This document shows, in pieces, positions 15,835 through 64,000 of a DNA stretch of 64,000 nt (positions within the stretch are counted from its first letter, which is position 1; each line of letters opens with the position of its first letter). Position numbers and translations under genes: made by a program. A model generated the notes under the pieces. The model saw only the letters and a program-made list of their open reading frames with translations, ran no database searches and had not been told where the DNA came from. This DNA comes from a virus (lineage: Duplodnaviria; Caudoviricetes). The stretch spans positions 16,001 to 80,000 of the IMG/VR virus record IMGVR_UViG_3300021958_011541; one strand, 5' to 3'.

Positions 15835-16052
15835 GGTTTAAACTTCTCTAAAATGCTTTTTACAACTAACTCTCTAGTGTTATCTACCTCATCTGGAAGA
15901 CTAGTCTTTTTTCCTATAAGAGACTCAGCTTCAAGTATAGAATTATCTATAATTTTTTGCATTTCCCCACTGTATATTGAATGCTCTTTAATATAGTCTG
16001 CAAGAATCAATAAGTTTTCTATTGCAGTTTTTTGTTTTTTGTTTAACATCAT
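15831..16052 (-). CDS. Hypothetical protein
   Basis: 73-aa ORF; GTGTA at 16060-16064. Confidence 0.65.
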   Translation of the reverse strand: MMLNKKQKTAIENLLILADYIKEHSIYSGEMQKIIDNSILEAESLIGKKTSLPDEVDNTRELVVKSILEKFKP

Positions 16053-59177: not shown

Positions 59178-60286
59178 ATATATCTGAAAAATTATCACTA
59201 TCATCAGGACTCAAAATAAATAAACCCTTTATATATGAGCGTTTTTTTCCTCCTCCTAGTCAAAAATATATATTAGTAGAAAATAATAGTAGACCTGGCT
59301 TATTCGAATACAAGAGCTTTGACGAATTATCTGCAATAATCTTCCCATTTTTAGCAAAAGAAAATATTGAAATATTTCAGTATAAAATCAATCCACAAGA
59401 CTCAAATATATTTAGGGTTAAACAATTAAATAAAATTCCACTACAACAACTAAACAATTTAATTAAGCACTCTAGTTTAATTATTACTAACAATCCTTAT
59501 ACTGCTCACATATCTAATGTATTTAATGTTAAAAATATTTTCCTACATAAAGAAGAGCTTTACCCCTTACATACTCCACAATATTCTAATTCTACCACAA
59601 CAATAAAAGGGGGAACGAATTGCTTTCCAGAATTAATTTGTAAAGAAATTTTAAAAACTTTCGAAATAGATTCTATTCTATCTAAGATTAACCCAATATA
59701 TAAAGGCAAAAAATACGAACAAAAAAGAATTGAATGCGTCCCTGACTTTGACATTAAGCAAAATCCAATCAAAGATCAATTTATTACAATTCGGGCAGAT
59801 TTACATTTTAATTTACAAAATATATTAAATCTAATTATGAACAATCAGTCAGTATTAAAATGCAATCAAATCCCTAATTTAAAATATTTAACTAATCCCT
59901 CTATCTCTAAAAACTTAAAAGAAATTATATACGAAGTATTTGATACTACTACAGAAAAAGAAATGAGTAACTTAAATGATTTAAATAAACCTGTAACTTT
60001 TTTCACAAAAGATGAAGAAAATTTAAACAAAATACGATTAAAACATATCGACTACTCAATAGACTTTACATGCAAAAATAAAAACCTTGACAAATTAAAG
60101 TCGTTATGCAATAATAAAATATATTATAAATCATCCAAAGTAATAATGTCAAACAACAATCAATACAGTAGCGAAACTAATTGGAAAAAAAATATCCAAA
60201 TAAGCAACTCGTTTGAAGAAATATCACCTAGTGAAGATTTTGCGCAAGAATTAGAAGAATTTAAATTATTTCAATTAAATGACTAA
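59174..60286 (+). CDS. Degenerate GT9 (heptosyltransferase)-like protein
   Basis: LQQLNNLIKHSSLIITNNPYTAHIS resembles the GT9 'L..A.L.IG.DS...H.A' motif. Confidence 0.5.
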   Translation: MNISEKLSLSSGLKINKPFIYERFFPPPSQKYILVENNSRPGLFEYKSFDELSAIIFPFLAKENIEIFQYKINPQDSNIFRVKQLNKIPLQQLNNLIKHSSLIITNNPYTAHISNVFNVKNIFLHKEELYPLHTPQYSNSTTTIKGGTNCFPELICKEILKTFEIDSILSKINPIYKGKKYEQKRIECVPDFDIKQNPIKDQFITIRADLHFNLQNILNLIMNNQSVLKCNQIPNLKYLTNPSISKNLKEIIYEVFDTTTEKEMSNLNDLNKPVTFFTKDEENLNKIRLKHIDYSIDFTCKNKNLDKLKSLCNNKIYYKSSKVIMSNNNQYSSETNWKKNIQISNSFEEISPSEDFAQELEEFKLFQLND

Positions 60287-61097
60287 ACAAAAAGAAACAG
60301 GAACCTATCAAGGTCCAATTGGAGATAAAGGACCTTTAGGTCCTCCAGGAGCAGATAATAGCTTTGGGCCGAATTTCTACTCTAGAGACGAACACGGTTT
60401 GCTTAAGACCGTTCAATATGAATTCAATGAAGATGGCTCTATCAACTGGAGAGCAATGATTAAAGAAGAGCATTTGTTTCCTAATAAATCCCATTTTGAA
60501 ATGTATAAAAAACCTTTACCTAAGTCCATCAAAGGGCTTAAGGACAACCAGTTATTAATTAAACTATCAGGAATTAAAGAATTAGCAAAATTAAGAGGCT
60601 TTACTAACGTAACTTATGACACTGTAAGATGCGAACAGAATCATGTAGCTGTATCTTGTGGAATATCTTTTATCGGAAACTACGAAACAGGAGGTGAAGA
60701 AATATTCTTTCAAGATATGGCTAATGCAACACTTAATAACACAAGTAGTTTTGCAACTAAATTCTTAGAAACAATAGCTTGTAATAGAGCTTTTGTTAGA
60801 TGTGTAAGAAACTTTTTAAATGTGCATATTGTTGGTGACGATGAAATAGATAAATCTGAAAAAGAACCTATTTCTCAAGTCCCAACCACACAAACCTCTA
60901 CATCACTTTCTCCGAATTCTTTATTAACAAGTTACCTAAGCAATGAAAAGGGGATTAAATCCTTTGAAGAATTTAAAGACTTCTTAAGGATTTTATGGGC
61001 GGAAGATAAATACAGAAATGATGACATTAAAAATTGGTCTTCATTCTCAGATATACCAGCAAAAGAAGCAAGGATTTTATTAGGATTAATTAAATAA
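60279..61097 (+). CDS. Hypothetical protein, possibly Rad52/Sak-like ssDNA annealing protein
   Basis: LIKLSGIKELA...VAVSCGI.F...A.A...N...ETIACNRAFVRCVRNFL; five Gly-X-Y triplets near the N-terminus. Confidence 0.45.
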   Translation: MTKQKETGTYQGPIGDKGPLGPPGADNSFGPNFYSRDEHGLLKTVQYEFNEDGSINWRAMIKEEHLFPNKSHFEMYKKPLPKSIKGLKDNQLLIKLSGIKELAKLRGFTNVTYDTVRCEQNHVAVSCGISFIGNYETGGEEIFFQDMANATLNNTSSFATKFLETIACNRAFVRCVRNFLNVHIVGDDEIDKSEKEPISQVPTTQTSTSLSPNSLLTSYLSNEKGIKSFEEFKDFLRILWAEDKYRNDDIKNWSSFSDIPAKEARILLGLIK

Positions 61098-61160
61098 TAT
61101 AAAATAAACTTTAGGGATCAAGAAAAGTGTATATAATATACTGTACTCTTTCTATCCTTA

Positions 61161-64000
61161 ATGGCATATAATCCATCATTTCAATTTTTCGACGAAGGCG
61201 AAACTGAATTCGGCATTCTTAGGCCATATGTTCAATTTACCGAGCTAGATCAGTCTCTAGAAGGAGACCCTTCAGAATACACAATAAATGGTGCAGATCA
61301 TAATAGAGCGCTAACCTTATTTCAAGTTAAAGTTCAGACAATTTGTCCCCCAGGGGGGCCATATGCGCACTGTCTATGTGGCCCACCTCCTGCTTCAGTT
61401 GTATGTTGTGGTGGAGCCCACTTTTGTGCAAAAAGTGGCTCAGCAATGACTGAAGAAGGATTCTGCCAAGTAGGTAAAGGTTATGATTGGACATGTTCGG
61501 ATGGAACTTGTGGACCTAAAGCAAATATAGAAGATCAGTGCTGTGATGGAGAACCTTGGGCAGGTTCTCGATGCGAAGCAGAAAGCGCATTCAGCGACCC
61601 AGACGAAGATGAAGATCCATTTGCAATTTCTGGACCTCCTAGTTTACCTTTACCCCCCCTGTTTCCTCCATTTATTCCTGATGAAGAACAGAAACATCAT
61701 AAATATACTGGCTTTATAGACGACTATTTAACAGATGAGCCATGCGATAAAGACGGAAACCCCCTGCCTCAAATTCATATTCATTTAGCGAATGGCTCTG
61801 TAGTTAATTCATATTTAGACTGCCAAATTAACTCAAATGCTGTTATGAAAAACCCTGGGCTAGGCAGATTACAAATTAACGCTAAAGAAGGCGGAAATCA
61901 GGGTATTGGGAGGGGCGGGCGACCTTGGGGCAGTATTATTCCTGATATAACAAACACGCCTGGCGAAAATCCTTGGCCTAAAGAAAAGGCAGACATGTAT
62001 GAAAGAATGATGGAATACATGATTCCAGGTGCAGAAGCAGCGGTTAAAAAATATTTTGGCTTTGATCCAAAACCAAGCGACCCTTACGACGTTTTAATTG
62101 TAGCAAACGGATTTGGTTTTTACAATAAACGATATGACCAGGCTTTAGCTTACGTACTTTCGAATCATTTTAATGATGGAACCGCTGAAGTTGTAGAAAT
62201 GGCGCTCAGTCTACCAGTCGCGTTACAACAATGGAATTCGGGAAACAAACATGAACTTTATCACACAGTACTTCATGAATTAGTCCACCTTTTTCAAGCA
62301 CAAAATTCTTATTTTGCAAATGTAACAGGAGCAAACCCCAAACAAGTTTTTGGACGTGGCGCATCATTGTATAATAATTTTTGGCAAGCGAGTTGGTTCA
62401 ATGAGGGACTTGCTGAATTATTAGGTGGCGGAGATAGTCGTCTGAAAGCTGACTATTATGGACTCAGGAATATGAGAAACCCTGACAGAACATTAAAATA
62501 TCCTACTCACAAGTCTGTTATTAAAGAAATGGTCTATGCCGTAGGTCCAAGAGGACAAGGAAAATGGACCAGAGATAATCAAGGTATAGAAAGAAGATTA
62601 GAGCCTCACGAGCAAGGAGACGGCGGGTGGGATCATTCGTTTGAATATGATGGAGCAATTATTGTTGTAAGATATTTAGACTACATGATCAGAAAACAAG
62701 TTTCTCCATTAGGCATTAAACACATGACCTTATGGATGAAAAAACAATATGACAATAAAGCAGGAACTTATAACTCTGGAATTAGTCAATATTTTTCTAA
62801 GCACTTTAAAGGTTCTAGTGCAAGCGCTCAAATTGGAATTAATTTCAATACATCAAGTTTTATTTTTGGAGCAGGAACTAAAGATTATTCAGACTTTGGA
62901 AGCTTTTTGGATGATTTTGGTGATTTTGGGCAAGACTGGATCGATGACCCACAAGGAATGGATTTTCCAAACAAGGTTCTTAAAGATACTGCAGATAGCG
63001 ATCAAGGAGCTTATGCTGGAACGGATGTAGGAGGGGGCGAAACTACAGGAAAAGATTGGATTGTTGATCTCATGGAGGGCTCAGATAACCCTAGAAAAAT
63101 CCAAGGGGCTGCAAATGCTCCTACCAGTAACGGACCCGTAGGAGGAACAAGTACACCTCCTTCTCCTGGATCAGGAGGTGCGCCTGCACCAGCAGGATCA
63201 GGAGGAGCCCCTTCAAATTCTCCTGGTAGATCTAGCCCAGTGACTTCTGATTATGAATATAATTGGGAAAACCAGTGTAAACCAGAACAAACTCCTCCAA
63301 AAAATTTGCTTAGTTTAAGTACTTTAGATTTATATTGGCAAGACGGTGATGATGAAGGAGTTGGCCAAACTCCTGGCTCAAATGCTGTGCCCAAAGTTCC
63401 CTGGCCAGGCGCTCCGCATAGAGGCCTACCTGTAAGATTTCAAAGAGTTTATTTTGATGCTACACGAACAGATAGCAAAGGAGATCCAGCTCAAGGTTTT
63501 GACAGTCCTTGTTGTACAAGAGATTGCGAAAACGAGTTATGTACAGGTAACGAAGATGAAGATCCTTGCAACACTGCAGTAAGAGAATATTCCGCCTATT
63601 TTTTAGTTGCTGACCCAGTTTTAATTGAGCCAGAAATTTGTCAAGTTTACGGAAATTACGAAGATGAACATGATTTCGGTTCAATTACTGACTGGGGTAA
63701 AAACGGAAGAAATGCTTTAGTCATAGGTAGATCCGCTTGTTGTGACAATGCAGGGCCTCCAGGCCCCCCAGGCCCCCCAGGCCCCAAAGGCCCCCCAGGC
63801 CCTCCAGGCCCAGCAGGCCCTCCAGGCCCAGAAGGCCCTCCAGGCCCAGAAGGCCCTCCAGGCCCAGAAGGTCCTCCAGGCCCAGAAGGCCCTCCAGGTC
63901 CAGAAGGTCCCCCAGGCCCAGCAGGCCCTCCAGGCCCAGCAGGCCCTCCAGGCGAAAAAGGAGATGCGGGTCCTCCAGGTGCAGCGGGTCCTCCAGGGGC
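61161..64000 (+). CDS. Large Cys-rich protein (>946 aa, truncated at window end) with gluzincin zinc-metallopeptidase domain and collagen repeats; probable virion fibre
   Basis: Manual translation from ATG 61161 is open to the end; HELVH at 62274-62288, WFNEGLAE near 62394-62417; Gly-X-Y from 63753; missing from the track because no stop is in the window. Confidence 0.88.
63753..64000 (+). repeat. Collagen triple-helix coding repeat
   Basis: 27 uninterrupted Gly-X-Y triplets, 15 of them GPP; 18-nt unit ggccctccaggcccagaa/gca. Confidence 0.97.

Follow-up and report, generated by a model that had tools for sequence, protein, structure and literature searches.

The window, as we call the DNA examined here, is a stretch of 64,000 nucleotides from a virus of the Caudoviricetes (positions 16,001 to 80,000 of IMG/VR record IMGVR_UViG_3300021958_011541), and the gene at its 3' end encodes a protein in which what appears to be a flagellinolysin-type peptidase precedes a collagen-like chain. 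The gene (61161..64000 (+)) begins with an ATG and continues as a single open frame of 946 codons (61161-63998 (+)) without a stop up to the end of the window; the virus record of 80,000 bases (G000) stops at the same point, so that the gene is open at its 3' end. In the residue numbering of the window protein, which we use throughout, an N-terminal domain is followed by a module of 12 cysteines, the peptidase, a Gly/Pro/Ser linker, a Cys-bearing domain and the collagen-like tail. The protein has no signal peptide, and in Pfam scans of the whole protein and of its domains Collagen was the sole match. A preliminary description of the window, made from its letters alone, had listed a Cys-rich N-terminus (about a dozen Cys), VLHELVH with His372, a downstream EGxAE, GIKHMT, a Gly/Pro/Ser linker, a second Cys cluster and at least 27 Gly-X-Y triplets. 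Each of these landmarks was found: 12 cysteines lie within 62-138, VLHELVH was placed by script at 370, the EGLAE-bearing block from 412 (with E415) and GIKHMT at 518, next to further conserved blocks at 496 and 616, a Ser/Pro/Gly-rich stretch spans 641-700, and the second cluster comprises C706 and eight cysteines in 784-861.

The peptidase module occupies residues 270-640 (61968..63080 (+)) and is delimited by profile, sequence and fold matches. The NCBIfam flagellinolysin model NF033876 matches residues 274-639 with an E value of 1.6e-19 (70.6 bits), covering profile positions 40-304 of 384, and comparison by hhalign of a profile of the four phage orthologues described below with a profile of flagellinolysins gives a probability of 100% and an E value of 1.9e-38 over 272 columns (residues 270-622). 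The resemblance to proteolytic flagellins that the preliminary description noted, and for which it proposed a profile comparison, is thereby borne out. A phmmer search with residues 200-640 against 1.84 billion representative proteins returned 20 matches in all, of which one is a close fragment and most of the others are flagellins of ~570 residues that score 130-178 bits on NF033876 and possess the flagellin N- and C-terminal regions. In the window protein itself, a Pfam scan detected neither a Flagellin_N nor a Flagellin_C domain, and its 70.6 bits do not reach the NF033876 equivalog cut-off of 205 bits. Judged by its sequence, the window protein is not a flagellin, and the ~350-residue peptidase module alone is common to both. 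Within this module the two share the motifs HE-x-VH-x-x-QAQN-x-Y, WF-x-EGLAE, a YLAVRYLD-like helix, GIKHMT-x-WMK-x-Q-[FY]-D, SG-x-x-x-Y and a final D-x-G-x-x-x-G-x-D, with D-x-D-QGAY-G-D at the end of the window module pairing with DTGS-x-G-x-D of the flagellins. Two insertions distinguish the window module from flagellinolysins: ~14 residues are added ahead of the Glu helix and ~20 residues around 462-490.

The predicted active site can be read directly from the alignment. H372, E373 and H376 in the motif HELVH (62274..62288 (+)) align with HEMVH of flagellinolysin, while E415 and A418 in the motif E415-G-L-A418 (62403..62414 (+)) align with EGLAEF. The family-defining residues of FliA(H) are His233, Glu234 and His237, with Glu262 as the third ligand and Ala265 as the basement residue (PMC5595980). 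By analogy with these roles, the first three window residues would be two zinc ligands and the general base, E415 the third zinc ligand and A418 the hydrophobic 'basement' alanine. All five are invariant in the four orthologues. A second HExxH-like string, HELYH (364-368; 62250-62264), lies eight residues before the catalytic one; we do not take it for the catalytic motif, since the relatives, with HKFYH or HDFYH, do not keep its Glu. H364, Y367 and H368 of this string are nevertheless invariant in the phage family and may be extra metal or substrate contacts.

A PDB sequence search with the single window protein found no relative. The AlphaFold model of the peptidase, built with 21 sequences, is of moderate quality (predicted template modelling score 0.72; mean predicted local distance difference test score, pLDDT, 66) and consists of a β-sheet, then the active-site helix (pLDDT 92) and then the Glu helix (pLDDT 86). 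When the model was compared by VIA-align with 48,161 representative chains, three M9 collagenases ranked first: ColT (4ar8; Z 11.8, 242 aligned residues, root mean square deviation 4.7), ColG (2y3u; Z 11.6) and the Grimontia hollisae collagenase (7wss; Z 11.3). Almost all chains ranked after these are gluzincins (M1 aminopeptidases, M30 lugdulysin), along with TFIID subunits at Z 9-10. Foldseek by itself gave weak matches (best E value 0.038), though nearly all of them are gluzincins. The model thus suggests a thermolysin-like gluzincin fold that is closest to M9 collagenases. The preliminary description had invoked a relation to M9 collagenases, and this holds for the fold, where they are the nearest solved structures (Z 11.3-11.8), but not for the sequence, since Pfam Peptidase_M9 (PF01752) gave no match at E values up to 10 with either the domain or the whole protein. 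The M9 collagenases (ColG, ColH, ColT and that of Grimontia hollisae) have the same gluzincin zinc site and are also the nearest fold reported for flagellinolysins; however, their identity to the window model in the structural alignment is 12-13%, they lack a sequence-level match, and their activator, PKD and collagen-binding domains are absent from the window protein, which on this comparison is not a member of family M9. Taking sequence and model together, we assign residues ~270-622 to a predicted gluzincin peptidase of the flagellinolysin family whose nearest solved fold is that of M9 collagenases.

The collagen-like region begins at residue 865 and continues through residue 946 and beyond (63753..64000 (+)), being ended by the end of the record. 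It contains one unbroken run of 27 Gly-X-Y triplets (865-945, up to the window edge), encoded by an 18-bp tandem DNA repeat, and proline makes up 39 of 86 residues. Pfam Collagen matches with an E value of 2.7e-13 and 49.9 bits against a cut-off of 27.2, in agreement with the earlier reading of this part, and a profile of the four orthologues searched against the PDB matched collagens only (E value 1e-43). On these scores the region appears to be a genuine collagen-like sequence, far beyond chance. In the relatives the tail is considerably longer: that of L008 (1846-3573) extends over at least 581 residues and is still open, with 11 perfect triplets followed by blocks of three to four GPP-type triplets that are split by Gly-X-Gly steps (GY, GV, GS), and with CPPC motifs, while that of L007 (12490-12844) has recurring G-E-C-P-P-C-P-E units inside the repeat.

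Directly before the collagen lies the junction domain (residues 689-862; 63225..63746 (+)), the most conserved domain of the protein, with 83% mean column identity in alignment A5; it ends in an invariant block two residues before the first triplet glycine. Pfam found no match for it, a search of the ESM Atlas with residues 690-862 gave template modelling scores of at most 0.33, as did residues 1-200, and an AlphaFold model of residues 686-867 from four sequences (pLDDT 34) has no usable fold. In animal collagens, disulfide knots and Cys-rich staples adjoin the helix. By this analogy, the junction domain is a candidate for the site at which the chains trimerise or the helix nucleates, with a Cys staple between the chains. 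Between the peptidase and the junction lies a flexible linker rich in Gly, Pro, Ser and Thr (residues 641-688; 63081..63224 (+)), recognised by its composition and differing in length among orthologues, which might, speculatively, be an O-glycosylation tract.

A scan of metagenome contigs found four more loci with the same architecture, L005, L008, L006 and L007, from estuary and marine metagenomes. L005 (on a 36.7-kb contig) and L008 are near-identical, so that these loci represent three further lineages, or four with the window; L007, L013 and G001 are the same, an IMG/VR record of 121,649 bases. A 1.5-kb fragment, L003, belongs to the same family. A search by tblastn against 50,697 phage records gave no match, a scan of 185,579 bacterial and archaeal species genomes in GTDB found no relative, a scan of IMG/VR found only the 121.6-kb record, and word-indexed protein searches found only a fragment (P0002) and a protein resembling P0004, discussed below. 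L003 has an early stop (1469-1471, after ...DLCKF), which we considered as a natural form without collagen and rejected, because in the near-identical L006 and L007 the frame continues into the junction and collagen, and because the stop is 64 nt from the contig end; it is probably a contig-end artefact.

The orthologues are 62-65% identical overall to the window protein, but very unevenly so. The start MA-x-NPSFQFF is kept in the window, L005, L006 and L007, and conservation is concentrated in residues 1-60, 10 of the 12 cysteines, the peptidase core and residues 689-862, while both linkers vary in length and sequence. Such a pattern is what we would expect of a working multi-domain protein, and we take the window protein to be one. 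In the alignment of the four orthologues (A4), most columns of the N-terminal domain (residues 1-60; 61161..61340 (+), directly before 61341) are invariant. We consider it a candidate attachment domain; no match to it was found among families, in the ESM Atlas or among paralogues. The Cys-rich module that follows (residues 61-140; 61341..61580 (+)) had no match in Pfam, and additional cysteines are present at C195 and C221. An acidic, Pro-rich linker (residues 141-178; 61581..61694 (+)) differs among orthologues in length and sequence, and leads to a pre-peptidase segment (residues 179-269; 61695..61967 (+)) in which the motifs KYTG..DYLTD, KEGGN and IPD..N..GENP are conserved in A4. This segment, over which AlphaFold confidence is poor (model residues 1-68, pLDDT 25-47), could be a pro-segment.

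Two further elements accompany the gene. Directly before it in every locus is a gene for a protein of 272 amino acids (60279..61097 (+); counterparts at 9115-9927 in L005, 5419-6234 in L006 and 9106-9924 in L007), which has five Gly-X-Y triplets near its N-terminus and no family match. At ~80% identity across the four phages, it is more conserved than the fibre protein itself, for which it may be a partner, adaptor or chaperone. Between the two genes is an element at 61108..61139 (+) that ends in GTGTATATAAT, includes a perfect TATAAT at 61132-61137, 24 nt before the ATG, and is nearly invariant in the four phage lineages. It is promoter-like in its sequence, and there is no clear Shine-Dalgarno sequence after it. 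The start, the 272-residue gene and the upstream element are common to four phages, and independent DNA runs from estuary and marine samples contain the gene at 100% identity; it is a real gene. Short metatranscriptome contigs from aquatic and salt marsh libraries (151-292 nt, 95-98% identical) map to the part coding for the junction domain (63070-63489). They hint weakly that this gene or a close relative is transcribed, and we do not count them as proof of expression because they are too few and possibly represent DNA carry-over.

The peptidase also occurs in other non-flagellin proteins. P0004, a protein of 2583 residues (L018, 10001-17752 (+); 2583-2586 residues when its counterpart P0022 is included), has such a peptidase at ~100-430, followed by FG-GAP repeats; its gene, on a contig of 124 kb from a marine phage, follows a sigma-like gene and lies two genes ahead of the large terminase. 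It scores 142.6 bits on NF033876, its peptidase being much closer to the flagellin type than that of the window. P0004 and the window protein have the peptidase alone in common, at 27% identity, and P0004 has no collagen. Five genomes with a terminase 67-81% identical to that of the P0004 phage contain neither a P0004-type peptidase nor collagen, and because of this absence P0004 behaves like a variable gene of the host-range type. A further non-flagellin copy, P0015 (1166 residues), is found in a bacterial assembly. The preliminary description knew of no phage architecture like that of the window. The literature agrees: we found nothing relevant on the combination of a phage collagen-like fibre with a metalloprotease, none of the papers found that mention flagellinolysin does so in a phage context, and both primary papers on it (PMC5595980, PMC7643111) are without phages. 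For the peptidase taken by itself the statement needs qualifying, given the giant phage protein P0004.

From these observations, we hypothesize, with modest confidence, that the gene encodes a virion fibre, a collagen stalk with protease heads that act outside the cell on proteins of the host surface or matrix; a fibre-displayed protein-cutting enzyme is probably what this phage has. In such a fibre, three chains would wind into a collagen triple helix; the conserved domain directly before it (689-862) would nucleate the helix, an invariant Cys-Cys pair would staple it, in the relatives together with the CPPC motifs, and the product would be a stalk carrying three protease heads. Because it has no signal peptide, the protein would exit the cell together with the virions; its most likely form is an external fibre or whisker on the particle. 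Its zinc-dependent (probably also calcium-dependent) protease would then cut proteins on or around the host surface, as a protein-directed counterpart of polysaccharide depolymerase tail fibres. Possible targets are the surface layer (S-layer), outer-membrane proteins, filaments or a protein-rich matrix, and we assume neither collagen nor the S-layer specifically. Trimerisation, virion attachment, activity and target are all deduced rather than observed. Two findings are, as context, consistent with a virion or host-recognition gene. PHROG families of phage proteins with collagen repeats are annotated as tail fibres or minor tail proteins, and four of them (6320, 5073, 8745, 1806) match residues ~816-946; and P0004, which carries the same type of peptidase, is encoded close to a terminase.

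Comparison with known systems shows that the parts of this design are each familiar. Flagellinolysin domains are Zn/Ca-dependent broad endopeptidases whose activity is abolished by the E-to-A change; they prefer a hydrophobic P1' residue, and one of them cuts the flagellins of another species (PMC5595980, PMC7643111). They did not cut collagen (PMC5595980), and for this reason collagenase activity is not to be assumed here. The whole ~350-residue module of FliA(H) from Clostridium haemolyticum and HgrFlaMP from Hylemonella gracilis is homologous to that of the window, and the concept is alike in that many copies of a protease are shown on an extracellular filament; but the carrier is a flagellar filament in the one case and a collagen-like phage chain in the other, and HgrFlaMP is without cysteines (PMC7643111), whereas the window protein has Cys-rich modules. 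Among phages, collagen-like tail fibre and minor tail proteins have Gly-X-Y repeats that are thought to trimerise, as those of the window may, and in the streptococcal phage hyaluronidase HylP the enzyme forms part of a fibre with such repeats. Known fibre enzymes cut polysaccharides, in contrast to the peptidase type found here, and the repeat of the window family is much longer than that of known phage collagen-like fibres and Pro-rich (GPP, GPE). The animal collagen-tailed assemblies, such as ColQ-tailed acetylcholinesterase, collectins and C1q, follow the principle hypothesized here, a disulfide-stapled collagen stalk with globular heads or an anchored enzyme, with no homology to the window protein beyond the repeat: collectins and C1q have Cys-rich N-terminal staples, and asymmetric acetylcholinesterase has the ColQ tail.

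The behaviour of flagellinolysins also bears on whether the protease might instead act on the phage's own proteins, in maturation or self-processing, trimming fibre or virion proteins in the manner of a procollagen peptidase and perhaps being cut off later, like the intramolecular chaperones of some tailspikes. Recombinant flagellinolysin does digest itself (PMC7643111), and the enzyme of the window is N-terminal to a flexible linker that is a potential cleavage site. We nevertheless judge this unlikely: flagellinolysins are outward-facing endopeptidases of broad specificity, the conservation of the N-terminal domain and Cys module equals that of the enzyme and suggests that their structural role is a lasting one, and the phage maturation proteases known to us belong to other families.

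The genome is that of a large phage with a host of Gram-negative type. The window encodes a DnaE-like polymerase, ribonucleotide reductase, DnaB, UvsX, a Clp-type ATPase, a sigma-like factor, a deoxynucleoside monophosphate kinase and, by similarity, PhoH, while rIIA and rIIB are found in the relative G001. The fibre gene stands at the end of a plus-strand block in which a sigma-like gene is followed by glycosyltransferase-like genes, two subtilases, more glycosyltransferase-like genes and the 272-residue gene. Host-recognition regions of marine myophages mix fibre genes, collagen-repeat proteins and glycosyltransferases (PMC7029224), and the glycosyltransferase-like genes that precede the fibre gene are, as context, consistent with a virion or host-recognition gene. 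The same neighbourhood can be read otherwise, as that of a soluble collagen-tailed enzyme which is freed at lysis, sticks by its collagen tail to debris, marine gels or neighbouring cells, and destroys receptors or matrix proteins there, for example to prevent trapping of the progeny. We regard such an enzyme as possible, though not probable. The gene sits among glycan-building and protease genes with no recognisable structural gene adjoining, the missing signal peptide is compatible with release at lysis, and no paralogue has the same N-terminal domain, as sets of fibres often do. On the other hand, a collagen tail of 580 residues or more, preceded by a conserved junction domain, would be a costly design for a soluble enzyme, the phage collagen-repeat proteins of known location are, to our knowledge, fibres, and the other phage with this peptidase has it near the terminase.

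Several observations weigh against a virion fibre. The PHROG matches cover only the low-complexity collagen part. No capsid, portal or terminase gene was detected in G000 (80 kb) or G001 (121.6 kb) with five probes (Gp23, the HK97 capsid, Terminase_6N, the terminase of another marine phage and the protein of the gene adjoining it). The structural genes would then lie in the unassembled part, with the fibre gene at the boundary, a position that fits the first gene of a late or structural block. CheckV rates G001 as 90% complete despite the lack of a structural-gene match; the explanation would be strong divergence of the structural genes or a genome far above the estimated size. As a rule, phage fibres are attached through the N-terminus and have the functional tip at the C-terminus, whereas here the enzyme is N-terminal. 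A stable triple helix would not usually have Gly-X-Gly breaks at every three to four triplets, as the tails of the relatives do. Each of the five contigs stops within the repeat, short of the C-terminus; the far end of G001 contains rIIA, rIIB, a clamp loader and an oxygenase and no collagen, exact repeat words of the window and L008 matched no other viral contig, and a contig of 61.6 kb that was reached via a terminase and shares its sample with G001 has no collagen. The many cysteines in a protein made in the reducing cytoplasm also need explaining; a search for an Erv1/Alr sulfhydryl oxidase gave no match, but it gave none in control genomes either and is uninformative.

The peptidase itself also departs from the flagellinolysins at two points that count against the fibre with active protease heads. 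HExxH and the Glu ligand are joined by a loop of 39 residues, as opposed to 25 in FliA(H), and the flagellinolysin motif F-D-L-P-D is L-S350-L-P-V353 in the window, while the relatives keep D-L/M-P (n=3). The acidic ligand of the calcium site in FliA(H) is Asp206, upstream of HExxH (PMC5595980), and if the D-L-P aspartate is a Ca-site ligand, calcium dependence may differ in the window protein. This substitution of Ser for Asp in the window copy could be taken to mean that the fold serves as a receptor-binding pseudo-enzyme; alternatively, since virion-associated cell-wall peptidases are common in phages, the module could cut peptidoglycan peptides during entry. Both seem very unlikely to us. 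The catalytic residues are all invariant in four lineages, which argues against a dead enzyme, and the phage cell-wall peptidases that we are aware of are of the M23, M15, CHAP and NlpC types rather than M9-like gluzincins, with no such family matching the window protein in Pfam or NCBIfam scans.

If the protein is a protease-bearing fibre, its interest lies in the combination. Flagellinolysin-type peptidases, collagen-like phage fibres and enzyme-bearing fibres are each already known; what is new is the joining of this peptidase to a collagen-like chain, conserved in several uncultured phages, a design not described for phages in the literature searched. Sugar-cutting enzymes on phage fibres are known, but protein-cutting ones are barely documented, and an endopeptidase that is conserved and apparently active, borne on a collagen stalk by at least four lineages of estuarine and marine phages, would point to an infection strategy based on cutting surface proteins or matrix of the host, with the flagellinolysin peptidase taken outside flagella. 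With the domain boundaries and E373 as control, an assay can be set up directly. For recombinant collagen work, there is also interest in a GPP-rich collagen of a prokaryotic virus with what may be a Cys staple of its own.

A bolder picture can be drawn from the same features, namely a coat resembling a matrix and made of very long collagen fibrils with disulfide staples, possibly prolyl-hydroxylated, glycosylated or sulfated, that bear active proteases and are akin to the glycosylated fibrils of giant viruses; in a second strand of this picture, free-standing phage-borne modules would be the missing source of the flagellin insert. We consider it doubtful. As context for such a coat, G001 has two oxygenases of the prolyl-4-hydroxylase family. 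These 2-oxoglutarate-Fe(II) oxygenases (PF13640; L101 and L102), at 120018-120299 (+) and 83502-83786 (+), match with E values of 4.9e-16 and 1.6e-9 and bear on possible hydroxylation of the GPP-rich collagen; no PF13640 oxygenase was found in the 80-kb record of the window.

The discovery paper of 2017 left the origin of the protease inserted in flagellins undetermined (PMC5595980), and the non-flagellin, phage-borne copies are material for tracing the origin and movement of the flagellinolysin protease. In some marine proteolytic flagellins (L009-L012, P0005), the segment D-T-G-S-x-x-G-x-D stands before the peptidase and not after it, and from its occurrence on either side the module seems to exist in two domain orders.

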